Shown here piece after piece: positions 8,447 through 59,992 of a stretch of DNA of 64,000 nt (the first letter of the stretch is position 1; each line of letters begins with the position of its first letter). Under the pieces are notes generated by a model. That model was not told the DNA's origin. It searched no databases and saw only the letters and a list, made by a program, of their open reading frames with translations. Source of the DNA: a virus; IMG/VR virus record IMGVR_UViG_3300027850_000002, positions 96,001 through 160,000 of that record; one strand, 5' to 3'. The translations under genes were made by a program, and so were the position numbers.

Positions 8447-9012
8447 CGTCCTTTGCTCGCGCTCTCGAAACGTCGGTCCTTCTCGCGGAGAAGATCGCGT
8501 CGTCGCGCTCGGAAAACCCGACGTTACGAGAGAAGCTCGCGCTCGCTGACTTCGCTGCGTTCGGCCTCTTCAAGCGGGCAGCGCTCGACCCAGCGGCCTT
8601 GTCTTCGCTGCAGCGTGGACTCGGTTGGGGTGTTGGGCTCGGAATCCCCGCGCTCGCTGCGGGACACATGTTCTTGAACGATGCGCGCGACCACAGCGGC
8701 GAAGTCCTGCGTGATGCACGCAACCAAGCGCTCATCACGGCAGCGGGCGTTGGCGGCATGCAAGCGCTCGGGGAGGCTTTCAAACGGAAGCCACAACCGT
8801 CGCAACACAACGTCAACGTTTCAATGCCGCAACAGCCAGAGCAGCCACAGCTCGACGATCAGCAAAGGCTCGCCGCCGCCATCATGGTCGATGATGTGCT
8901 CGAGGCAGCGTGCAGTCAGCTTAGCGATCCTGTCGCAAAGCACGCAGCGCTCGTGGAACTCATCAAACACCGCAGTGAAGCGACGAACCTTCTACGGAGT
9001 CTTTTGTCGTGA
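8443..9012 (+). CDS. Gly-zipper membrane-type virion protein
   Basis: EKIA/EKLA/FKRA, then GLGWGVGLGIPALAAG and ITAAGVGGM. Confidence 0.7.
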   Translation: MTSFARALETSVLLAEKIASSRSENPTLREKLALADFAAFGLFKRAALDPAALSSLQRGLGWGVGLGIPALAAGHMFLNDARDHSGEVLRDARNQALITAAGVGGMQALGEAFKRKPQPSQHNVNVSMPQQPEQPQLDDQQRLAAAIMVDDVLEAACSQLSDPVAKHAALVELIKHRSEATNLLRSLLS

Positions 9013-10751
9013 AGAAGATCATCGAGCTGGATGACTACTTTCCGACGGGTGAACCGACCGTTCAAATCATCCTGCCGTGGAACAACGGACGTAGCGTCGA
9101 CACGAGTCGTGTTACCAAGTACGCGTCCGAAGCGCTCGATTACATCAAGCACGTCGCACCTGAGCCTGGCAAAACCGCGCTCCTGCTCAACGCGATGGGC
9201 GCCGAGGAGACCTACGGACCGAACCGCAACGGCGATGGGTTCCCTGAGTTTCCCGTCCCAGCTCGCGGCAAGATTGCATCGGCAGATCGTCGTTGGTTCG
9301 TACCACCGGGCGAAGAGCTGACGCACCATTACGCGTCGTTCGAAAAGAATCCTGCCCACGCGTTCATGCACCACGCAAACCGAGATCCGTCGAAGGCCTC
9401 TGGCGTGGTGAAGAAGGCGTTCTGGAATCCGCGCATGCATCGCGTGGAGCTGCTTACCCTTGTCGACAACGACAAGGACCCCGAGTGGATCAAGCGTGCG
9501 AGCGACGGTGAGTTCGTGCCCGTCAGCATGGGCTGTCGAATCAAGCGTGATGTCTGCGCACGATGCGGCAACGAAGCGCCCACGCGCGCGGACTACTGCG
9601 ACCACGTGAAGTTCGCGATGAATCAGGTCGACTCGAACGGGTTCAAGGACTATGTCCACAACCCATCGCCCGACTTTTTCGACATCTCGCGCGTGTTCCG
9701 CCCTGCGGATCGTACGGGCTACACACTCAAGAAAGTCGCAGAGACCTACGAGGTCCGACTCTCGGCAGACCTCGGCGAGATCGCCGATCGTCTCGCGCTC
9801 AAGAGCGGTGCTTCGCAAAAGCTATCCGACATCGACAAAGTGATTCGCGCTGAACCGCTCGCGTCCAGTACGCTCACACCAGACGAGAAATCGTTCATCG
9901 TAAAATTCCGGGACCACGCGGGTCCCAAGCTCGCGGCTGCACCGCGCATCAACACGGCAGGTCTGCATGTGTGGTCTCTCGGAGAGACGCTCACCGCTGC
10001 CGCAAAACACGGTGTCGTATTCAACGACCGTGAATTCATCGGACTCGCAACAAGCAAGCTCGCAGGACATCCAGTCACATTGCTTGAAGCACAGACGGAC
10101 AAGATCGCAGCCGCCGGTCGTTGGTCGCTCGCGCTGTTTGCTGAACGCCCTGAGCTACTCGCCGAAGTGATTGATAGCGGCGTGCTCGAGTCTTCAAAGA
10201 CCGCGAAGGAGTTAGATGTATTCTTCGCGAGTGTGAGCGAGAAGCGTGCGTACGCCGGAGAGATGCTCTATCGACGTCTCGTACCTGAAGATATCGGACT
10301 TGGCCCTGACGCTGCGCCCACCACGGACGTGCTGCACACGCAATACGGTGACACCACACGCGGTGCAGCGATCGATGCACAAGACGCAGTCACGCGAGCA
10401 CACATGGGCAAGGTGGTTGGCGGTGCAGGTCTGCTCCTCGGCGGATACAAAGCGCTCACTGCATTTCCATGGATGCGTAAATTCAAGGTGCCGCTTGCGA
10501 TCGGAGCAGGGGCTCTCGGCGCATCCACGTTGGGCAAACGTCCTGGTGGAACAATGCGTACCGATGAAGGCTACGACATTCCAGACATCACAGAACTGAC
10601 GTCGAAGACTGCATCGCAGGCGGCGTTTGTTCACCTTATCGAATGCGCACAAACAATGACGCGCAGATTCGATTTCTCGAGTATCAAGGTTGCGAACCTG
10701 GCGTCGTTAGATCAGGTGGCCATGGCGCTCGGTTCCATCGTCTTGACTTGA
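9009..10751 (+). CDS. prohead (capsid maturation) serine protease with Zn ribbon and C-terminal extension
   Basis: NRNGDGFP, FMHHAN (candidate His), VSMGC (candidate Ser), CARCGN..CDH. This is the layout of HK97/assemblin-fold phage proteases. Lies upstream of scaffold-like genes and the MCP. Confidence 0.75.
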   Translation: MKKIIELDDYFPTGEPTVQIILPWNNGRSVDTSRVTKYASEALDYIKHVAPEPGKTALLLNAMGAEETYGPNRNGDGFPEFPVPARGKIASADRRWFVPPGEELTHHYASFEKNPAHAFMHHANRDPSKASGVVKKAFWNPRMHRVELLTLVDNDKDPEWIKRASDGEFVPVSMGCRIKRDVCARCGNEAPTRADYCDHVKFAMNQVDSNGFKDYVHNPSPDFFDISRVFRPADRTGYTLKKVAETYEVRLSADLGEIADRLALKSGASQKLSDIDKVIRAEPLASSTLTPDEKSFIVKFRDHAGPKLAAAPRINTAGLHVWSLGETLTAAAKHGVVFNDREFIGLATSKLAGHPVTLLEAQTDKIAAAGRWSLALFAERPELLAEVIDSGVLESSKTAKELDVFFASVSEKRAYAGEMLYRRLVPEDIGLGPDAAPTTDVLHTQYGDTTRGAAIDAQDAVTRAHMGKVVGGAGLLLGGYKALTAFPWMRKFKVPLAIGAGALGASTLGKRPGGTMRTDEGYDIPDITELTSKTASQAAFVHLIECAQTMTRRFDFSSIKVANLASLDQVAMALGSIVLT

Positions 10752-30409: not shown

Positions 30410-30684
30410 TGACGCTCAAGCACGCGTACGCGAGAGGTTGTCGAGCGGCGCTCGAGAAGTTCGCGCTCGATCCTCCAACCGCTGTTGACGCGTTCATGGG
30501 CGCGGTGGAATCAGGCAAGGATGTTGCGCCTGAACCGGCATTGCCGCCGATGTCTCATGCACCCGGCGAGATGCTTCCTGCACTCGACGGCACGACGCCA
30601 CTCTCGACGTCGCCGCCCATGTCGCCGGACCTCGGTTCCACCATCGGTGCACCGCCACCACCCATGATGGGCGCGCTGGGCTGA
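30409..30684 (+). CDS. small tagged virion protein
   Basis: MTLKHAYARGCRAALEKFA|L; Pro-rich tail. Confidence 0.7.
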   Translation: MTLKHAYARGCRAALEKFALDPPTAVDAFMGAVESGKDVAPEPALPPMSHAPGEMLPALDGTTPLSTSPPMSPDLGSTIGAPPPPMMGALG

Positions 30685-50566: not shown

Positions 50567-51189
50567 TGGCGGACCGCCCGATGTGTTGCGATCTTGTTAG
50601 GACCTGTGTACGTGGTCGTGATGTTGAATGTCGCGAACTCGCCTTGGCCCGAGCCGCCGTCGGTGGCGAGAGCTGTAGCTGCGCCCGTTCGGAACACGCG
50701 TAGCCGCGCGAATATTTGTCCGTTCGGGTCAGTGTTGTTTGTCTGGTCCATGTAGAAGTTGCCTTGGAGAAGACCGGCGGCGACTGCGATCGCATCTCCG
50801 ACACTGCCGACGACGGCGTGTGCCGTGAGCAAGTCGTCGAGGACGGCAGCGGCGATCGCGGGTGCAAGAGGAAGATCGTCGGTGTTGCGCGTCAGGATGT
50901 TGAACGACGCGACGCCGCTGACCGGGCATCGTGCAGTCACGCCGCCGACAGTGACCTCGGCGTAGCTGCTGTACTCGTGACCCACGAGAAAGCCGTTGCC
51001 TGTCGTCAAGACCGCCTGAATCTCGTAAAGCCCGACAGCCTTCAACGCGACGACAGGCGCGTAGCCCATCGGCGTGCCTTGATCGAGGATCACACAGACC
51101 GGAAGGGAATCTGCGTTCTGTGCAGCGCCCGTTCCAAAATTCGCAGTCCCAAAGGTTCCGCGGAGGGTTTCACCAAGTTTGACGTACAT
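50563..51189 (-). CDS. putative virion/fibre-associated protein
   Basis: Ig-like N-terminus (GLYE..), IAAAVLDD linker. Confidence 0.55.
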   Translation of the reverse strand: MYVKLGETLRGTFGTANFGTGAAQNADSLPVCVILDQGTPMGYAPVVALKAVGLYEIQAVLTTGNGFLVGHEYSSYAEVTVGGVTARCPVSGVASFNILTRNTDDLPLAPAIAAAVLDDLLTAHAVVGSVGDAIAVAAGLLQGNFYMDQTNNTDPNGQIFARLRVFRTGAATALATDGGSGQGEFATFNITTTYTGPNKIATHRAVRQ

Positions 51190-54100
51190 CAGCCACCTCC
51201 ACGCAGAATGTTCGAACCCACCAAGACGCCGCCGCCGCCACTGCCGCCAGCAATGATCTCGAGCGGATCTTGCGCCAGGAGAAGCGGATCGACTTCAACC
51301 TCGACTTGACTCGGCAACACGATGATCGAGCCGGTCACCGCTTGAATGGGCACGCCAATCGAACTACGCGAACCGTCAGCCACTGTACGGAACTCGGTGT
51401 TGCCGCTGTACGGTCCTTGCGGGTCGACGCTGTTGAGCGGGACGCTGCCGTTCCAAGGTACAGCGAATGCGTGACGCGACTGATCGGTTTGATACAAGTT
51501 GTTCGTCTTGAACACGACCTTGTGCATCATGTAGTCGCGGGCAGTGCTCACCGTGATCGAAGTGCCGCCGTAGCCGTACGCTCGATCCGGCAAGTGCAAG
51601 AAGGACGATTCGCCCTTGATGCCACGACCCGCAGGCGCACCGCCGGTCTGTAACCACACCCACGGCCACAACCGCAGGTGGTTGCCTCCGACAGCAGGGT
51701 CACACCCAAAGAGTCCTCCGCCACCGCTACCACCACCCGCGATGGTGCCGTAGAGCGTCTCGTAGGTCGGAGAGCCGACGTTCGTCCAAAGCGCGTTCTC
51801 AGCAGTGAACGCCTCGCCGTAAAAAAACGCTGCGAAGGGTTGTGCGAACGGCGGGTAGTTGCTGTTTCCGCTGGAGTTGAATGCGCCCTGCATCCCGGAG
51901 AAGCCTTGTCCAGGCGAACTCCGCTGAGACACGTAGACAACGTACGGATCAGGGTCGGACGGGTCTGCGTTCTTGATCGGGTCATAGAACATGAACCCGG
52001 ACGCTGAGCCGTTGAACTTGCCGGTGTACCAGTGGTGTCCTGCGTGAACGAAGTGCGCACGACTTCGTGAGACGTCGTACGCGGTCGCGGCATATCCGTC
52101 GGAGCCTCCGGTGTATGGCAACGCCTGGCCTTGGTTGTTGCCAGTCGGCGCCTCGAAGAAGTCCGTCTCCTGTTGCCAACCAAACACGGTGTCGACACGG
52201 TCCCAGAAGTATCCAGGTCCAGGGATGAAGCCTGAGTAGTTGCGCCCGCCTGCCATCGCGAGAACACCGCGCGCGTTGTCAAACCACATCGACCCGCCGA
52301 CGCGCGGCAGGCTTGCCGGCAGAAACGTTTGCAGGACCCAATTTCCGCCGACCCATTTCCACGTATCGGTAGGAAAGATGCTGCCGTTGTACCCGCCGTA
52401 CAGCCACACATTCGTTCCATCGCCACACATCGCCACCGACTCGCGCGTCCCTGGATTGTTCGCGGGTGCGAGCAAAGTCCAGTTTGATCCGTTCCACGAG
52501 TACGTCGAGGACTGGAGTGTCGGAGAACCGTCGTAGCCTCCGTACAAGATGACGCGGTCGCCGGCGCCATCCCATGCCATCGCGTGAAGAAACCGTGTCG
52601 CGGGTGTCGTCACGGGAACGGCGTTCGTCCACGTCACGCCGTTGTACATCCACGTGTCCGAGAGTGCGCTGTTGTTGCGATCACGACCGCCGAAGAGCAC
52701 GACACGGCTGTTGGCCACGTCGTATGCCATCGAATGGTGGTACCGCGCTGACGGAGACGTTGTAGGAAAGATGCGTGTCCACTTCGTGCCGTCGAATTCC
52801 CATGTTCGATCGGTCGCGCCGTTTGGTGGCGTAACCGTGTCGTTGTATCCACCGAACCAGACGAGCACCTGTCGAACAGGGTCATAAACCATCTGTGAGC
52901 CGTGCCCAGCAGACGGAATGGCGCGGACAACACTCCACTGCGTACCGTTCCACAACCAGGTTTGGTTGCTGGTCTGGTTGCTGAACCCCCACGGAGCGTA
53001 GTCGTTTCCCGATGGAAACCCGGAATGCACAACCATACGTGCTCGATCAGAATCGAAACACGTAGCTGCACTGGCACGCCGACTCGGGGCACGTTCGTCC
53101 GGAAGCGAAAACGGTGTCGACGGTGATGCGACGGCCAGTGTCCAGTTCGTGCCGTTCCATGTGTATGTAGCACCGTCGTAGATGCCGCCAGCGAGCAACC
53201 CGCCCAACATCACAATCTTACCGTTGGTCGTGTCTGTCACCATCGCTTGCGTCGAGCGTGCTGGTGGTATGGTGCCCGGAGCAAGCAACGTCCACGTATT
53301 GGTCGCTGTATTGAACTCGTACGTCTGGCTGTTCGGGACTCCGCCGTTCTCGCCGCCGAACATGATGATGCGTCCGTTGGACGGGCTGATGCCCATGCCA
53401 GCGCCCGCGCATGCGGTCGGTGTTCCAACGGTTACGAGCAACGACCAATCCGTGCCGTCCCACTTCCAGGTGTCGTTCAGATACGTGCCACCCTGATCCT
53501 TGCCGCCGAACATGATGATCGCATCCGCCGCGGGCGACCACACCATGGATTGTTGCTGGCGTGCGGGCGGTGTCGTAGTGACTGTAGTCGATGGGTGCCA
53601 ACGCACGCCGTTCCAGATCATGGTCGTGGGCGTGGTTTCGATGTTGAAGTTGTCGATGAGGCCACCGAACAACACAACCTCTTGACGAGTCTCGTCGTAC
53701 GCCATCGCGCCATTGCGACGAGGCCGCGGAGATCCGTTCCACGAGACCGTCGCAGCTTTCCAATCCGTGCCGTCCCACAGCCATGTTTGGATGTCGACGA
53801 AGTTGCCGCCAAACAAAACGCCTCGCTGACGAGCCTTGTCGTAGGCCATCATCGCGCCATCAGCAGCCGGCGGTGAATGTGCCAGTGAGTCAGGGTTACT
53901 GTCCCCACTGGTATCGAGCACGACCCAATCGTCGACGGCCAGCCCGCCTGCAACGAACCACCCGTCAAGATTGTAGCCGTACCCGCCTGCCCACCATCCA
54001 TAGGGCGCAGCGTTGTCAGCGCTGATCGTGAACGTCTGATCCCCGTCTGGGTAGAGCGGGACGACGGCGAACGTCGGTGCTGCATCTGTTCCGCCACCGA

Positions 54101-54524
54101 CAATGATGTGCTCATCAACAGACGTCGGTGTTTCGATTGCGGACGGTGTTCCGCTCGTGAAAGGCGCAAACAGCGTGTACTTGATACGCCAACACAGGTT
54201 TGCAGAAAATCCAAGGAGGGGCGCGTACCCGAGTGTGTTGAGCGCTGCCGGATACACCGTGGCGTCGTCGACACGCTGAAAACAGAACATCGCACCGCTG
54301 TCCGGCTTCTTGATTACAAACCACGCGAGTGTGTTCGCCATGCCGCCTGCGCCTGCGCCTGCGGTCGTGATGACGTCGTTGACGTTGCCTGGCGTTGTAG
54401 AGAACGTCGTACCATCACTCGACGCTTGTACGACCCAACCGCAGCTCTTGAGCAACTGCTTGATTCGGAAGATCGCCTCCGCGAACGTGGCGGGAATGAA
54501 ATTGGCGTCGAATTGCATGGTCAT
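51189..54524 (-). CDS. fibre/receptor-binding protein with inserted Kelch beta-propellers
   Basis: Many MAYD..VLFGG..TWxWDG repeats flanked by a domain shared with the two upstream paralogs. Confidence 0.75.
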   Translation of the reverse strand: MTMQFDANFIPATFAEAIFRIKQLLKSCGWVVQASSDGTTFSTTPGNVNDVITTAGAGAGGMANTLAWFVIKKPDSGAMFCFQRVDDATVYPAALNTLGYAPLLGFSANLCWRIKYTLFAPFTSGTPSAIETPTSVDEHIIVGGGTDAAPTFAVVPLYPDGDQTFTISADNAAPYGWWAGGYGYNLDGWFVAGGLAVDDWVVLDTSGDSNPDSLAHSPPAADGAMMAYDKARQRGVLFGGNFVDIQTWLWDGTDWKAATVSWNGSPRPRRNGAMAYDETRQEVVLFGGLIDNFNIETTPTTMIWNGVRWHPSTTVTTTPPARQQQSMVWSPAADAIIMFGGKDQGGTYLNDTWKWDGTDWSLLVTVGTPTACAGAGMGISPSNGRIIMFGGENGGVPNSQTYEFNTATNTWTLLAPGTIPPARSTQAMVTDTTNGKIVMLGGLLAGGIYDGATYTWNGTNWTLAVASPSTPFSLPDERAPSRRASAATCFDSDRARMVVHSGFPSGNDYAPWGFSNQTSNQTWLWNGTQWSVVRAIPSAGHGSQMVYDPVRQVLVWFGGYNDTVTPPNGATDRTWEFDGTKWTRIFPTTSPSARYHHSMAYDVANSRVVLFGGRDRNNSALSDTWMYNGVTWTNAVPVTTPATRFLHAMAWDGAGDRVILYGGYDGSPTLQSSTYSWNGSNWTLLAPANNPGTRESVAMCGDGTNVWLYGGYNGSIFPTDTWKWVGGNWVLQTFLPASLPRVGGSMWFDNARGVLAMAGGRNYSGFIPGPGYFWDRVDTVFGWQQETDFFEAPTGNNQGQALPYTGGSDGYAATAYDVSRSRAHFVHAGHHWYTGKFNGSASGFMFYDPIKNADPSDPDPYVVYVSQRSSPGQGFSGMQGAFNSSGNSNYPPFAQPFAAFFYGEAFTAENALWTNVGSPTYETLYGTIAGGGSGGGGLFGCDPAVGGNHLRLWPWVWLQTGGAPAGRGIKGESSFLHLPDRAYGYGGTSITVSTARDYMMHKVVFKTNNLYQTDQSRHAFAVPWNGSVPLNSVDPQGPYSGNTEFRTVADGSRSSIGVPIQAVTGSIIVLPSQVEVEVDPLLLAQDPLEIIAGGSGGGGVLVGSNILRGGG

Positions 54525-54528
54525 GGGT

Positions 54529-55662
54529 TCACGTCAACGGCAGCGAGCCGTTCCAATCGAGGATGACCTTGCCCACGACGATCTTATCGCGTGAGGTGAC
54601 GGCCTTGAGTGCTTGTCCGTTGGAAAGATGTGCGTTGCAGAACTGCATCAACGACGACACCCCTTTGTAGCCGCGGATCATGCCGGGTGCAGACAATCCA
54701 AACCCGTCGGTGCCCACTTGAAATTGGGGGGCTGTGATTTTGTTGTTGTAGCTGTTGTACGACCAACCCATGGGGAGGCCGTACACGACAGGCCACCGAT
54801 CAACTTTGTTGTTGATCGGATTTTGCATTCGTCGTTCAGACGCTACGTAGTCCGGGAAGTGTGTTTGCATCGGAAGCCACGTCTCGACAGGGCCGCCGTA
54901 GTCGATGTACCCCCAGATCGAACTCTGTCCGGGTTGAAACGCGTATTGAAGCTCGTCGTCGAGAGCGTTTCCGTAACCCGCCCACGTGAAGTAGAACGCG
55001 TACGGATCGAGGTCTCCTGGAACAGCATGCATGATCGGGTCGAACACGGCGGCCCAGCCTGTGCGTCCGCTGAGGTGTCCGTCACCTTGCATGCCGTAGC
55101 CAACTATCCACCAGCCATACGGGGCAGCGTTGTCAGCCGCAATGTGGAAGATGGTGCCGGTGATGCGCTGCGACCCGAGCCACTCGGACCATTGAGGCGA
55201 CGCATCTGTTCCAAACCGTGCGGGGTCTGATCCGTATTTGCCGAGTACGAACTGTTCATCCAGCGCGTACGGAGTCTGGATGGCACTCGGTGTACCGCTG
55301 GTGAAGCCAACGTTGACGGAGTATTTGATTCGAAACCCCGTGGACTGCGGATTCGCGGTATCGCCCAATCGACGCTGAATCTGAAAACACAACTGTCGGT
55401 TGTCGTCGGGCTTCTTGATCACGAACCACGCGAAGTCTTGGTTCATCTTGTCAACGGTCGTGATGACATCATTGGCGTTGCCCGGCGTCGTGTTGAACGA
55501 CGTGCCGTCACTCGATGCTTGGATGACCCAGCCCACCGACTTCAAGTGCTCCTTCAGCGTGAAAAGCATTGTTGCATGTAGACCTGCGGTCCCCAGACCC
55601 CCACTGGTGCTCCAGTCAGGATCAAAGCCGCGCAGAATATTGTTTGCGCTGAATTGCATCAT
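54529..55662 (-). CDS. fibre-like paralog without Kelch
   Basis: LKSVGWVIQASSDGTSFNTTPGN.NDVITT, WFVIKKPD, ADNAAPYGWW, DPY, YKG.S. Confidence 0.7.
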   Translation of the reverse strand: MMQFSANNILRGFDPDWSTSGGLGTAGLHATMLFTLKEHLKSVGWVIQASSDGTSFNTTPGNANDVITTVDKMNQDFAWFVIKKPDDNRQLCFQIQRRLGDTANPQSTGFRIKYSVNVGFTSGTPSAIQTPYALDEQFVLGKYGSDPARFGTDASPQWSEWLGSQRITGTIFHIAADNAAPYGWWIVGYGMQGDGHLSGRTGWAAVFDPIMHAVPGDLDPYAFYFTWAGYGNALDDELQYAFQPGQSSIWGYIDYGGPVETWLPMQTHFPDYVASERRMQNPINNKVDRWPVVYGLPMGWSYNSYNNKITAPQFQVGTDGFGLSAPGMIRGYKGVSSLMQFCNAHLSNGQALKAVTSRDKIVVGKVILDWNGSLPLT

Positions 55663-56633
55663 GCGATGTCTCGCTTCGGCAGGGTGCCGTTCCAGGGTGC
55701 CGCGACGAGATAGCCGAACCCAGGGCCAAGGATGATGCGATCGCCTAGGGTGTCGACGGTCAAGACTGTGCCGATCGATCGCGGATTCAACACGTTCTTG
55801 AACAACGACGACAACCCTTTGACGCCTTGTCCCATGCTCTTCGTGAAGCCGTAGATGATAGGACCGAGGTCGTCTTTGCCGTTGTATGGATTCGCACCTT
55901 GTCCATCGTATTCTGAACCAGGCATCACGATCCCCGAGGAGTAGTCATCGTAGAGCCACTGACCGTCGTACATCGCGAAGCGTTGCTGTGTGCCCGTACC
56001 GACGTACCCCCAACCAAACAAGTAATGGTCGGCCGTGCAGATGTACACGTATGGATCCGGGTCGATGGACACAGCAAGTGTGTTTGGATGGAGTGCGTCC
56101 ATCGCGATCATCTGCGCGTATTCGTAGTCGCCGTTGCTGCCGTCCAACACGGCGGCATAGAATCGCCAGGGCGCCGTGTCTTCGACACAAATGTTCCACC
56201 GGATATCGCGATTGAAGCCGCCGAGATTGAACCCGTAAAAGTTGTCGTCGGAGACGAAACCACTGTCTGGTGCGGTTGGCTTGTCCGTCGCGGGGATCGC
56301 GCCTGCGACGAACCCCGCAGTCTTCGACACTCCGATGTACCAGTACTGAGAGCTAATGTTGTTGTCTGGGCCTTGTGGAAACAAGCCGCGCTGGAACATC
56401 CACTCATGTAGATTGTCCGGCGCCCGGACAACGAACCACGCGTTGTTGTTGTCCATGCCGTTGGCGCCGCTGTTGCGGTGTGCGATCTGATCGCCTGAGG
56501 CGTTGTACGTGATGCCGTCGGACGAGATCGGCACCGTCCACCCCACCGCCTTCAACGCTTCCTTGAGTGCGAAGACGGCCCACGGTGTGAACCCGTAGCG
56601 CAGGAAGATGTTGTTGTTGAAAACGAAGGCCAC
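55659..56633 (-). CDS. fibre-like paralog without Kelch
   Basis: GGAG RBS before GTG 56633; LKAVGWTV..SSDG, AWFVV, FQR, DPDPYVY, VKGLS. Confidence 0.7.
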   Translation of the reverse strand: MAFVFNNNIFLRYGFTPWAVFALKEALKAVGWTVPISSDGITYNASGDQIAHRNSGANGMDNNNAWFVVRAPDNLHEWMFQRGLFPQGPDNNISSQYWYIGVSKTAGFVAGAIPATDKPTAPDSGFVSDDNFYGFNLGGFNRDIRWNICVEDTAPWRFYAAVLDGSNGDYEYAQMIAMDALHPNTLAVSIDPDPYVYICTADHYLFGWGYVGTGTQQRFAMYDGQWLYDDYSSGIVMPGSEYDGQGANPYNGKDDLGPIIYGFTKSMGQGVKGLSSLFKNVLNPRSIGTVLTVDTLGDRIILGPGFGYLVAAPWNGTLPKRDIA

Positions 56634-56634
56634 G

Positions 56635-57051
56635 TTAGGGCTCCTTGGGCTTGTCGGGCTTGTCGGGTTTATCGTGTTTGGCGGGCTCGCCTGCTTCACC
56701 GTTCACGAGCAATCGATCGGGAATCGGCGGCATCAGAACAGGTGTTGGTGTCGGCTCGACGGGCAAGACAGTCGGACCGACGATCCAACCGCCCGCCTTC
56801 AAGATCGACAGGGCCTCGAGAGGTGCGTCGAACTCGGTCTCCGGTTCTCCGAGAAAATCAACAAGGCCCCATGTGATGGGAAACCGCCCTCGCTTCACAC
56901 GAGCACGCACCCGCACGCGCACAGTGTTGTTGGGGACGGGCGCGTCCTTGGACTCGGGCTCAGCTTTACCCAGTGCAGCAGGTGCGCCTTGAAGTTCAGT
57001 TTTTTCCTGTGCAACAGGTGCACGCAGCGGTCGTTTCACCTGACGCTTCAT
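56635..57051 (-). CDS. hypothetical protein with DKP repeats
   Basis: ATGA coupling; ends HDKPDKPDKPKEP. Confidence 0.55.
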   Translation of the reverse strand: MKRQVKRPLRAPVAQEKTELQGAPAALGKAEPESKDAPVPNNTVRVRVRARVKRGRFPITWGLVDFLGEPETEFDAPLEALSILKAGGWIVGPTVLPVEPTPTPVLMPPIPDRLLVNGEAGEPAKHDKPDKPDKPKEP

Positions 57052-57560
57052 GGTTGCGGCTCCCATACTCCATTGGTGACGTGACCGTGAGCGCCGCACG
57101 TACGGCACTTCAAGCTCGGCGTCAGCGTGAGCGGTTCAACGCAGATGATCTGGTGGACCGGAGCCCCGTCGAGAGGTCGCACGGCGCAGAACGACTGGCA
57201 CACGGCGTTCGAGTTGCGTGCGTCGATGTGCGTGTGCAGCCAGCCGATGAGGATCTCGTCTTTATCGAGCACGGCCTCGAACGTGTGGCCATGTCCCAGC
57301 TCAAGTGCTCCGACGTGGACAAGCGGCTCCTTGGATGTAGGCTGCGCCTTCGTGGGATCATCACGCCACGCGGGCCTGCCATTGATCTCGTCGAGGTCAT
57401 CGGCGGTGCGCGCGATCGGCTCCTCGAACCTTTGCTTACGCAAGCAGTCACTGCACAACGGGCGGTGTGCGAGCGGCGTGTTCGGGACATGATAGAGACG
57501 CTCGTCGATGCGCTTGCAGTCGCACTCGCCGACGCCGACGTAGACCGGACGCTCCATCAT
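57048..57560 (-). CDS. Cys/His-rich protein (DUF6527-like C-terminus)
   Basis: EPLTLTPSLKCRTCGAHGHVTNGVW. Confidence 0.65.
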   Translation of the reverse strand: MMERPVYVGVGECDCKRIDERLYHVPNTPLAHRPLCSDCLRKQRFEEPIARTADDLDEINGRPAWRDDPTKAQPTSKEPLVHVGALELGHGHTFEAVLDKDEILIGWLHTHIDARNSNAVCQSFCAVRPLDGAPVHQIICVEPLTLTPSLKCRTCGAHGHVTNGVWEPQP

Positions 57561-58948
57561 CAGCGCCGTCCCGGCAACGCGAACGCGGCAGCGGCGGCTT
57601 CCTCACCCAGCGAGGCCCACTTCGGATTCTGTGGTGGGCTGTGTTCTTGGATGAGGGGCTTCGCGTTGCCGAACGCCTGGCCCATCAGGTTGCCGGGACG
57701 GGCCGGGTCCTTGATGTAGTTCGTGAACGCGTGGTTCATGCCGTGCTGGTGCGCAGCTGCAGCAGCTTCGCCGCGCTCTATCACATCAGTACGAAGGCCC
57801 GTGGGCTGACCCGGCTTGATCGGAAGGTAGTCCACGGCTTTGCCACCGACGATGTTGCCTTCGTGCACGTCGTGCAGACGCATGCCGTTGGGACGCTCGC
57901 CGCGCACGCGCGTGGCCGCTTCGAAGCTGGACGTCGCGCCCGGGTGATCGGTGGCGTGCTCGTAGAAGTGCGCGGGTCCGATCTTTGTCGGGGTCTCACC
58001 CTTGTACTGCGCGACGTACGGGTTGCCGCGCAGTGCGGTTCCGGCCTCCGCCTTGTTCGCGACCATCAGGGGACCGGAGATGCCTTGCGGGTCGTAGACC
58101 TTGCGGACCGCGATGCCGTGCTCGGGGTGCGCGACGAGCGTCGACGTTCCCTCCATGCCGCTGCCGATGTGTTTGATCTGGCTGCCGGCCGCAGACGGCT
58201 TGAGCACGCCGGGCGTGGTAGCGAGCCGGTTCGCTGCACCCATGTTGCCGGTGTTGATGTGCTGCTGGATTGCACGCATGCCTGCGCGCGCAGCCGTCTT
58301 CTCCGTTGAGAACGATGCGGCCTTCTCGCCGAGCGACTTCTCGCGTCCGGTCAGCGGGATCTCGTGGTGATCGCGTGCCGCTACGTGCGCGTGGTCGATC
58401 GTGAACTTTGCATCGAACGCGGGAAGGTGACCTTCAACGCGCCCCTTGTCGCCGAGGTAGCCAAGCGTAATGTGCGGGGTGAAGGTGTGGAGATCGGACG
58501 GGTCGATACCGTGCGTAGAAAGAGCACGCGACATGTCGACGTGGAGGTGTTCGAGGCCTGGCGCGTCGAGTAGCGCGACCAGAGCAGTCGAAGGCTTGCC
58601 GCCGCTCGAGGCGCCATCGAAGTAGCCCCAGCCTTGGATCTTGGCGTCGATGGGTTCGGTCTTTTCGCCGACCTGGCGAAGCGCGGAGAGTGCGGCATGT
58701 ACCTTCTCGGGTGGATGGTCCTCGGCGGGCTTGCGCGTGTAGACCAACGTGACGTGGTCAATGTCCTTGTGCTTCGACGCATCCGGGATGACCTTCCTCT
58801 GGATTTCCCGAAGGTTGTCAGCGACATGCTCGGGCACGCGAACGTGCACGAAGAACGTCTTTGGATCAGTCGAAATCCTCGCAGTCTTCACCTGGCTGGA
58901 GGCCAGAAGAAGCTCATCGAGCACCGCGGCAAACGAGACGGTTCGCAC
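57560..58948 (-). CDS. polyprotein: Acb1-like 2H phosphoesterase plus protein-kinase-like domain, separated by K-x-A sites
   Basis: VKTA| then HVTLVY..LVALLD..TPHITLGY; EKAA/EKTA| then IGSGMEG..VRKVY..HDVHEGNI..VDY. Confidence 0.75.
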   Translation of the reverse strand: MRTVSFAAVLDELLLASSQVKTARISTDPKTFFVHVRVPEHVADNLREIQRKVIPDASKHKDIDHVTLVYTRKPAEDHPPEKVHAALSALRQVGEKTEPIDAKIQGWGYFDGASSGGKPSTALVALLDAPGLEHLHVDMSRALSTHGIDPSDLHTFTPHITLGYLGDKGRVEGHLPAFDAKFTIDHAHVAARDHHEIPLTGREKSLGEKAASFSTEKTAARAGMRAIQQHINTGNMGAANRLATTPGVLKPSAAGSQIKHIGSGMEGTSTLVAHPEHGIAVRKVYDPQGISGPLMVANKAEAGTALRGNPYVAQYKGETPTKIGPAHFYEHATDHPGATSSFEAATRVRGERPNGMRLHDVHEGNIVGGKAVDYLPIKPGQPTGLRTDVIERGEAAAAAHQHGMNHAFTNYIKDPARPGNLMGQAFGNAKPLIQEHSPPQNPKWASLGEEAAAAAFALPGRR

Positions 58949-58953
58949 GGGGA

Positions 58954-58962
58954 AATTATAGG
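58954..58962 (-). promoter_or_regulatory. putative late promoter motif CCTATAATT (minus strand, leaderless)
   Basis: 5 nt before GTG 58948. Confidence 0.7.
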
Positions 58963-59000
58963 TGTTCCGGCCGTTTGCACCGGAACCAAAAAAAAATCCA

Positions 59001-59009
59001 CCTATCATT
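59001..59009 (+). promoter_or_regulatory. putative late promoter motif CCTATCATT (divergent partner)
   Basis: Preceded by an A tract; 2-5 nt before ATG 59012/59015. Confidence 0.7.
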
Positions 59010-59011
59010 AC

Positions 59012-59443
59012 ATGATGGTCCCACCACCACCGAAGACGATCGCGGCGATCATTGCTGGTGTCGTCATCGCAATCACGCCTGCACTGTTTGGTTACTTGCA
59101 GAGCCGTGATGAGATCAGCGCGAAGTATCGACTGACCCAGGATGAAGCCGCGAACGGCTACACCGCGCTTGCCACGTCAGTCAAAGAACTTCAGGCCGCG
59201 ATGACGGCACAGCACGACTACATCGTGAAGCTCGAGGGACATCTCGAGGCGATGGACAAATTCGTGCTGTCGAACATCGACAAGCCCATGCTGATGCCTA
59301 CGGTCGACGGCCATCAGCCGCCTGGAAAGCCTGTCACACCGGAGCAACCACCCAAGCCGATCGAACCGCCTGCAAAGCCCTCGTTTGGGGATCTACCGGC
59401 CGATTTCACTGCGGCGACGCAACAGGCTGCACCGTCGTCGTAG
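59012..59443 (+). CDS. membrane-anchored coiled-coil protein (spanin/holin-like)
   Basis: N-terminal TM, coiled coil, Pro-rich tail. Confidence 0.6.
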   Translation: MMVPPPPKTIAAIIAGVVIAITPALFGYLQSRDEISAKYRLTQDEAANGYTALATSVKELQAAMTAQHDYIVKLEGHLEAMDKFVLSNIDKPMLMPTVDGHQPPGKPVTPEQPPKPIEPPAKPSFGDLPADFTAATQQAAPSS

Positions 59444-59461
59444 TGTGTTAAGATCCGCGAC

Positions 59462-59992
59462 ATGTCAATCATTATCGCGTTTCTGACGTTGTTTCTTGTA
59501 TCGGCAGATGATGTAGAGACCTTCCGAGCGACCGCGCCGTCCTACCTCACGACAGAGACCGCACGTGATCACCTGGTCGCAGCACGTATGGCCGCTGTGT
59601 ATCATCGTGTCGATGCGGACTTGCTGCTCTCGATCGCATGGTTCGAGAGTCGTTACACCATCGACGCGGTAGGGCCGATGGTCCGCGGCAAGCGTGCATG
59701 TGGCGTCCTCCAGCCGATCATGGAGCAGAGGTGCAGCGAGACGCCGTCTCTGATGGGCGGATACTTCGAAGGCGCCAAGCACCTGCGCGAATGGATGAAC
59801 GCGGCGCGTGGTGACATGCGCACGGCGATGCTCGGGTACGCCGGCGGCTACGCACTGATCAAGGCCTGCGACGAAGGGCCGTTGATGGTGCAACGCGGCG
59901 GCCGTGAGGTGGACCTGTGCACCGTCGTCAACGCCCGCTTCTCCCGCATGCGTTGGATTCAACGTATGAGAGCAAAAAAGACCGCCGTCTAG
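59462..59992 (+). CDS. SLT-type lytic transglycosylase with N-terminal signal/anchor
   Basis: LLLSIAWFESRY, ACGVLQ, GAKHL, AMLGYAGG. Confidence 0.8.
   Translation: MSIIIAFLTLFLVSADDVETFRATAPSYLTTETARDHLVAARMAAVYHRVDADLLLSIAWFESRYTIDAVGPMVRGKRACGVLQPIMEQRCSETPSLMGGYFEGAKHLREWMNAARGDMRTAMLGYAGGYALIKACDEGPLMVQRGGREVDLCTVVNARFSRMRWIQRMRAKKTAV

Follow-up and report, generated by a model that had tools for sequence, protein, structure and literature searches.

A phage protein joining a LigT-type 2H phosphoesterase to a reduced kinase-like domain, a candidate compact member of the polyvalent class

In a window of 64,000 nucleotides, the whole stretch of DNA analysed here (positions 96,001 to 160,000 of IMG/VR record IMGVR_UViG_3300027850_000002, from a phage genome of 175,415 bp estimated to be 94% complete), a gene on the minus strand at 57560-58948 encodes a 462-residue protein in which a LigT/ThpR-type 2H phosphoesterase domain is joined to a predicted protein kinase cut down to its N-lobe and catalytic segment. 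Reading from the GTG start, the protein consists of a leader, the 2H domain, a junction, the kinase-like domain and a tag-like C-terminal helix, and on balance we favour the reading that it is a small phage effector of the 'polyvalent' type (Iyer et al. 2017, PMC5512222). A first-pass annotation, made from the sequence alone, had described the gene as an Acb1-like phosphoesterase possibly delivered by the virion against the cyclic-oligonucleotide-based anti-phage signalling system (CBASS), and omits half of the protein, namely the kinase-like domain at residues 243-482 of the longest reading frame. Coordinates below are those of the window, and features lie on the minus strand unless stated otherwise.

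Extent of the gene and type of its 2H domain

The longest open reading frame (ORF) at this position, as listed and translated, runs over 57560-59008 and would encode 482 residues. Nearly all homologues begin at residue 21 of this frame, which is the GTG at 58948, and the ATG at 59008 lies upstream of a promoter-like motif described below; we therefore take the gene to be 57560-58948. The gene is real, as judged by a third-position GC content (GC3) of 0.77 and by its homologues, of which there are 114 for the whole protein at E≤0.001, the top match being at E 1e-227.

The 2H domain (58343-58864) is of the LigT/ThpR type with intact catalytic motifs, and is no member of the Acb1 family. The two catalytic motifs, H-V-T (58748-58756) and H-I-T (58466-58474), can be read directly; in an alignment of 44 homologues the His of the first is invariant and its Thr is kept in at least 90% of the sequences, while both the His and the Thr of the second are invariant. 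All 211 family members keep at least two Hx[TS] motifs. Searching Pfam with hmmscan gives 54.8 bits for 2_5_RNA_ligase2 (PF13563; cut-off 27) and 36.5 bits for LigT_PEase (PF02834; cut-off 23.3), both over residues 59-215 of the longest ORF, and a genome-wide search gives 58.5 bits for 2_5_RNA_ligase2/LigT and finds no other 2H gene in the genome. The Acb1 model (PF23474) is borderline against its cut-off of 27, with 25.1 bits in the hmmscan of the protein and 27.0 bits in a six-frame search of the genome, and it is matched over positions 2-121 of 144 only. Because the match ends at 121, the C-terminal lid that closes over cGAMP in the compact fold of Acb1 (PMC9117128) is unmatched in this domain.

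Profile and fold comparisons rank the families in the same way. A profile of the 44 homologues finds the Deinococcus cyclic phosphodiesterase (CPDase) in the PDB with an E-value of 2.5e-9, whereas an Acb1 chain is found with an E-value of 0.096. The AlphaFold2 (AF2) model of the domain, with a predicted local distance difference test score (pLDDT) of 89, has a two-lobed alpha+beta fold. It matches the Deinococcus enzyme drCPDase 5h7e with a Z score of 17.7 (root-mean-square deviation [rmsd] 3.3, 166 residues aligned), TT0787 1iuh with 16.8 and E. coli LigT with 16.7 (rmsd 2.3, 158 aligned), followed by Usb1 (15.8), AKAP18 (14.6) and MHV ns2 (13.6); Acb1 stands at 11.2 (rmsd 3.4, 133 aligned). 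The domain is approximately 175 residues long and runs on into the junction helix, whereas Acb1 is compact at 137-152 residues. Finally, hhalign finds nothing between the family profile and gp143 of Salmonella phage Arash, a true Acb1 (probability 0.7%). Arash gp143 (L009:13466-13918) is annotated as 'RNA ligase', yet it is a clear Pfam Acb1 with 57.8 bits.

The sequence elements on which the first-pass annotation drew, namely the VKTA that ends the leader, HVT, HIT, LVALLDAPGLEHLH, EKAA/EKTA and a motif 5 nucleotides (nt) from the start, are all present, and its recognition of a 2H phosphoesterase with both HxT motifs is borne out by direct reading, conservation, Pfam and fold. The name 'Acb1-like' is not supported by the comparison. 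Clustering with LigT had been put forward beforehand as one of the observations that would refute it, and such clustering is what the Pfam scores, the PDB profile search and the fold comparison show; the anti-CBASS reading is thus unsupported, since the domain groups with LigT/ThpR rather than with Acb1. The modelled fold does not reveal the substrate of the 2H domain. As a caution, HxT motifs alone are insufficient for calling phage 2H domains Acb1.

A kinase-like domain without a C-lobe

The C-terminal half of the protein (57626-58282, residues 243-461 of the longest ORF; AF2 pLDDT 94.4) is predicted to be a protein kinase of which the N-lobe and the catalytic segment remain and in which none of the catalytic residues is lost. 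An exhaustive structure comparison against 48,161 chains returned protein kinases or pseudokinases for all of the top 50 matches (Z 8.1-10.6), the best being ULK4 (Z 10.6, rmsd 3.1, 127 aligned), and Foldseek likewise points to kinases. These 50 alignments extend over approximately 115-148 residues, within model residues 47-181, which comprise the N-lobe and catalytic segment only; in place of the usual kinase C-lobe stand helices that are specific to this phage family.

Sequence searches with this half gave no Pfam match even at E≤10, and the best result of a PDB profile search (E 0.45) is a weak match to MEK2 and ROCK1, in which the alignment pairs the glycine-rich loop (G-loop), the Lys, the catalytic loop and the DFG Asp. 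Among 47 homologues the elements GxGxEG, R-K, D-x4-N and the Asp of D-[YF] are invariant. The first of these is the loop GSGMEG (58148-58165), whose three Gly and Glu are invariant and which aligns with the kinase G-loop, and the second includes the Lys of AVRK (58100-58102), the equivalent of the ATP-binding Lys in VAIK. The catalytic-loop equivalent DVHEGN (57854-57871) aligns with D-x-K-x-x-N, its Asp and Asn both being invariant, and VDY (57827-57835) supplies the invariant Asp that is aligned with the Asp of DFG. The kinase-like domain also occurs as a stand-alone protein in approximately 40 phage proteins, and no 2H gene is adjacent to these stand-alone genes.

A duplicated junction motif and a variable partner

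Between the two domains lies the junction EKSLGEKAASFSTEKTAARA (58283-58342), with the motif [LM]G.[KEQ]AA, which most homologues carry after the 2H domain regardless of the downstream partner. Here the junction reads EKSLGEKAASFSTEKTA and holds both EKAA and EKTA. The motif follows the 2H domain and occurs again 10-40 residues from the C-terminal end, so that the variable part of the protein is bracketed by it, and it is absent from the stand-alone kinases. In the protein described here the second copy lies in the C-terminal helix PKWASLGEEAAAAAFA (57578-57625), which resembles a tag that recurs in other proteins of the phage: the copy, WASLGEEAAAAAFAL, has the G..AA...FAL spacing of the phage's helical tag, an example of which is AYARGCRAALEKFAL at window position 30427. 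DUF5661 was considered as the shared tag and rejected, as two tagged proteins have no Pfam match and DUF5661 has an EHT...EIAMDHL motif of its own.

The protein opens with a leader helix, VRTVSFAAVLDELLLASSQVKTA (58880-58948), that ends in VKTA. In the AF2 model it is a separate helix, of low to intermediate confidence, with a disordered linker after it, and the Lys of its K-x-A is kept in at least 90% of the sequences in the 44-homologue alignment. K-x-A follows both the leader and the junction. The leader is missing from proteins in which the 2H domain is fused behind a portal.

The first-pass annotation had seen a polyprotein here, and the modular make-up is confirmed in that the 2H domain is one module of a multi-module protein. 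An exhaustive profile search yields 3,684 relatives (E≤0.001), with 75 cluster representatives reaching E≤1e-30, and identity of the 2H domain is 55-79% in a set of more than 60 metagenomic phage proteins. What follows it varies, and may be the kinase-like domain, a cupin, a GNAT together with a kinase-like domain, DUF5661 or no known family; HD, ligase-type and protease domains are also carried beside the 2H domain in relatives, and most of the variable cargo regions have no match to any Pfam family. The 2H domain is at the N-terminal end with more than 40 residues after it in 129 of the 211 family members and internal in another 50, and 19 of the 211 are at least 1000 residues long. In one relative (P0044, residues 470-500), the last 20 residues of the 2H domain are repeated ahead of a DUF5661 module, and by sequence this repeat looks like a recombination scar at the junction. 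As a small module marked by the conserved EHT...EIAMDHL...YY.KL, DUF5661 recurs between the cargo domains of this family (P0044, P0008, P0012, P0045).

Links to phage heads in relatives

Neither the full protein (tblastn) nor 14 kb of the DNA (megablast) has a match among 50,697 phage records, and matches to cultured phages are obtained only with the 2H domain alone at a relaxed E-value (tblastn). The nearest of these include genes named 'capsid maturation protease'. Microbacterium phage ValentiniPuff gp7 (E 4e-6) and Arthrobacter phage Kovu gp20 (E 4e-2) have related 2H domains fused to Peptidase_S78_2, an XkdF-type protease, and are encoded beside the portal.

Similar fusions occur among the metagenomic relatives. 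Three complete Phage_portal_3 proteins (P0126, P0133 and P0135) carry a 2H domain behind the portal, as does a portal truncated by the end of its contig (P0084), and in two others (P0140 and P0145) the 2H domain shares its chain with a domain of the ATP-dependent ligase type and, at the C-terminal end, a prohead protease of the XkdF type. P0140, a protein of 2016 residues with an N-terminal 2H domain, also contains a LAGLIDADG intein at residues 796-1150 (Hint and intein-splicing matches) beside its ligase-type domain. The best viral fold matches are to large actinophage proteins labelled RNA ligase, structural protein or capsid morphogenesis protein.

The protein under study has no portal, MuF or head-protease domain of its own. 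Because close 2H relatives are fused to portal proteins and prohead proteases, virion delivery is plausible, and this part of the first-pass annotation gains support by comparison with relatives, although the cargo that would be delivered is not an Acb1.

A promoter-like motif and the surroundings of the gene

The gene is preceded by the promoter-like motif CCTATAATT (58954-58962, minus strand), followed by TCCCC and then the GTG, so that the motif lies exactly 5 nt from the start. The 175,415-bp genome contains 13 copies of the pattern CCTAT[AC]ATT where 1.1 would be expected, and most of them lie 2-10 nt upstream of a start codon. A motif copy of the CCTATAATT type lies upstream of the tail sheath gene, and another heads the head-region operon adjoining the head maturation protease gene (genes identified by PHROG matches). 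The motif that the first-pass annotation calls 'late' is thus shared with structural genes, and it is reasonable, if provisional, to call the promoter late.

The arrangement is conserved. Orthologues in L002 and L003 have the identical motif at the identical 5-nt spacing to a GTG, and a relative in L004 (46% identical) has the variant CCTACAATT 5 nt upstream of an ATG. Some over-long gene calls of homologues open with 'TYNF' or 'TYHF', which is the promoter motif in translation. A back-to-back partner motif, CCTATCATT (59001-59009, plus strand), precedes a divergent operon that encodes a transmembrane (TM) protein and an SLT-like protein, and the divergent pair of motifs is also present in L002 and L003. 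Each motif of the pair lies 2-5 nt before a start codon, so the mRNAs would be nearly leaderless, one of them beginning with GTG. Within window positions 58954-59012, the minus-strand CCTATAATT is separated from the plus-strand CCTATCATT by a run of T and a 7-bp hairpin.

The divergent operon (59012-59992, plus strand) encodes a 143-residue protein with a hydrophobic N-terminal stretch, membrane-like by eye, and a 176-residue protein with a weak match to SLT transglycosylases (17.6 bits). This operon may thus represent a lysis cassette that the same motif controls.

On its own strand the 2H-kinase gene heads an operon together with a 170-residue finger protein and three fibre-like paralogues. 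Its stop codon overlaps the ATG of the 170-residue gene in the sequence TGATG (57558-57562), read directly, which points to translational coupling. The 170-residue gene (57048-57560, minus strand) has a Cys/His-rich C-terminal end like the finger mini-proteins of the same genome and is 66% identical in L002. The 2H domain is 79% identical to that of L002, compared with 43-66% for the neighbours except for the dCMP deaminase, at 77%. The three fibre-like paralogues (window 51189-56699, minus strand) are of 346, 377 and 1111 residues, the last with Kelch repeats; the same position in L002 is occupied by three genes of 342-359 residues, to which they show no similarity at E≤1e-3, and the flanks are conserved. 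The head maturation protease gene is at window 9009-10751, 48 kb from the 2H-kinase gene.

A packaged effector and its alternatives

Polyvalent proteins include 2H domains fused to MuF or portal, kinases without a C-terminal subdomain, and GNATs, and according to a computational prediction they travel inside the capsid and enter the host cell; their 2H domains were suggested to be Usb1-like RNases or to break down nucleotide signals such as 2'-5' oligoadenylate (Iyer et al. 2017, PMC5512222). The protein described here likewise carries unrelated effector-type domains in one chain, a 2H and a kinase lacking the C-lobe, and because this pattern of domains and fusions matches that account we propose it as a new compact member of the class. 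It differs from typical polyvalent proteins in being small, with two enzymatic modules only and without MuF, portal or peptidase, and its conserved leader, duplicated junction motif and tag-like C-terminal end set it apart from the published accounts.

We consider this the probable nature of the gene, albeit by no wide measure, and the way in which such an effector might work can be outlined. Transcription would start from the conserved CCTATAATT promoter, which also serves structural genes, and the mRNA would probably be nearly leaderless. The leader would form an amphipathic helix at the N-terminal end of the effector. By comparison with relatives, loading of the protein into the prohead and its entry into the cell together with the DNA seem to us slightly more likely than not. 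More tentatively, the head maturation protease may cut at the K-x-A and LGxKAA junctions, giving separate enzymes. The 2H enzyme would then act on substrates with 2',3'-cyclic-phosphate or 2'-5' phosphodiester bonds, either RNA ends or nucleotide signals, and the kinase would phosphorylate host proteins, as T7 gp0.7 does.

A number of observations weigh against this account. The gene lies outside the head module both here and in the relatives L002/L003, L004 and L005, where its neighbours are uncharacterised genes with a dCMP deaminase nearby; the divergent partner operon resembles a lysis cassette, and late promoters also drive non-structural genes. The protein has four K-x-A motifs, about the number expected from its composition, and only their position and conservation are suggestive. 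Its leader departs from the consensus of the phage's N-terminal tag, and the role of the shared tag is itself conjectural. Lastly, the kinase has one of the three special features of the polyvalent kinase clade of PMC5512222, the Glu before strand 2.

The alternative that fares best, and which we nevertheless regard as unlikely, is that the protein is an uncleaved two-domain enzyme made late, acting in the cytoplasm and never packaged, in which the junction and terminal helices are structural linkers. This would suit the position of the gene, away from the head module and facing a probable lysis cassette. It would also suit the AF2 model, where the junction forms a single long helix that continues into the kinase domain and is modelled with high confidence, and the stand-alone kinase-like homologues open with the same helix. 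However, the 2H module is repeatedly fused to portals and prohead proteases in relatives, no leader is present in the portal-fused forms, and two copies of the junction motif enclose a swappable cargo.

Still less probable, in our view, is that the two domains form an RNA end-healing pair, in which the 2H domain would open the 2',3'-cyclic phosphate ends left by host anticodon nucleases or other metal-independent RNases and the kinase-like domain would phosphorylate the 5'-OH. Fungal and plant tRNA ligases, with their CPDase and kinase modules, are an analogue. The closest relatives by sequence and fold are indeed RNA 2',3'-cyclic phosphodiesterases, P0140 and P0145 combine this 2H domain with a nucleotidyltransferase domain of the ATP-dependent ligase type, and the conservation of the 2H domain relative to L002 is that of a core enzyme. 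Against this, searches of the phage genome, at its estimated 94% completeness, for Rnl2-type, RtcB and ATP-dependent ligase domains gave no match, and the kinase fold is that of a protein kinase and not of a P-loop polynucleotide kinase. The partner of the 2H domain is moreover interchangeable (cupin, GNAT, DUF5661), so there is no obligate coupling of 2H and kinase; together, the lack of a ligase match in these searches, the protein-kinase fold and the swappable partner weaken the RNA-repair reading. Polyvalent-type 2H domains are also reported to show no association with RNA ligases (PMC5512222).

Virion association of a true Acb1 in a cultured phage would bear on the idea of a pre-packaged enzyme. 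Virion preparations of phage Arash have been reported to contain 116 proteins, among them subunits of RNA polymerase as well as gp143, which is represented by 14 peptides in the virion proteome (PMC10585845). With so many proteins reported, contamination of the set from the lysate is possible, and the true Acb1 of Arash may be virion-associated. That the protein described here is itself an Acb1-type enzyme, pre-packaged and injected to destroy the cyclic-oligonucleotide signals of CBASS at the start of infection, is very unlikely: in its favour are the 2H fold and the presence of both HxT motifs, a borderline Pfam score, the standing of the genome's sole 2H gene, the Arash precedent and the similar proposal of nucleotide-signal degradation by polyvalent 2H domains (PMC5512222), but LigT-type families lie far ahead by sequence, profile and fold, the lid over cGAMP goes unmatched, hhalign finds no relationship to Arash gp143, and the domain has the size of LigT rather than that of the compact Acb1.

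Returning to the packaged effector that we favour, the family as a whole allows a broader proposal, which we hold to be doubtful. In a large clade of uncultured phages, the arrangement of leader, 2H domain, LGxKAA junction, variable cargo and LGEEAA tag might constitute a programmable capsid-cargo cassette. The 2H domain would be the constant injected part, neutralising RNA-cleaving or nucleotide-signalling defences at time zero, and the junctions would be both sites for the prohead protease, with a new K-x-A specificity, and points of recombination at which effectors such as the minimal kinase are swapped.

Relation to known systems and significance

Both domains share some features with better-known enzymes and differ from them in others. 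Like drCPDase 5h7e, E. coli LigT 5ldm and TT0787 1iuh, the 2H domain is a full-size two-lobed enzyme with both HxT motifs. It shares only 16-24% identity with the LigT/ThpR enzymes and, unlike them, forms part of a larger phage protein of several domains; at the second motif it has HITLGY, compared with HITLAR in drCPDase. With Acb1 (T4 gp57B and that of Erwinia phage FBB1) it has in common the 2H superfamily, two catalytic His and a phage origin; it differs from those enzymes of approximately 150 residues with a C-terminal lid in its LigT-like size, and it is without profile similarity to true Acb1. The ValentiniPuff and Kovu proteins, as noted above, have a related 2H domain, but there the protease itself is fused to the 2H domain and the gene lies between portal and capsid, whereas here the protease is separate and 48 kb away.

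The T4 internal proteins IPI-III and Alt are targeted to the capsid and cleaved by gp21. If the proposal is correct, the protein described here would resemble them in late expression, a short targeting helix, removal of that helix by a protease, and injection with the DNA. It would differ from them in the cleavage sequence, which would be K-x-A here and is L/I-x-E in T4, and in having a tag-like element that is C-terminal. The kinase-like half may similarly be compared, by analogy, with the Shigella OspG family and T7 gp0.7, in which a small kinase core is used against host proteins, and the named clusters that lie nearest in a language-model search include one of the OspG family, which is a lead only. 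Unlike OspG and gp0.7, this half has no sequence-level family match, and the helices that follow the catalytic segment are specific to this phage family.

To our knowledge, the 2H domains of polyvalent proteins have had no experimental function assigned since their prediction in 2017. The 2H domain is conserved above all but one of the neighbours compared, which indicates an important substrate. A small two-domain member of the class with clean boundaries is convenient to express and assay, and if packaging proves true the family would lend itself well to the study of enzymes that enter the host alongside phage DNA.

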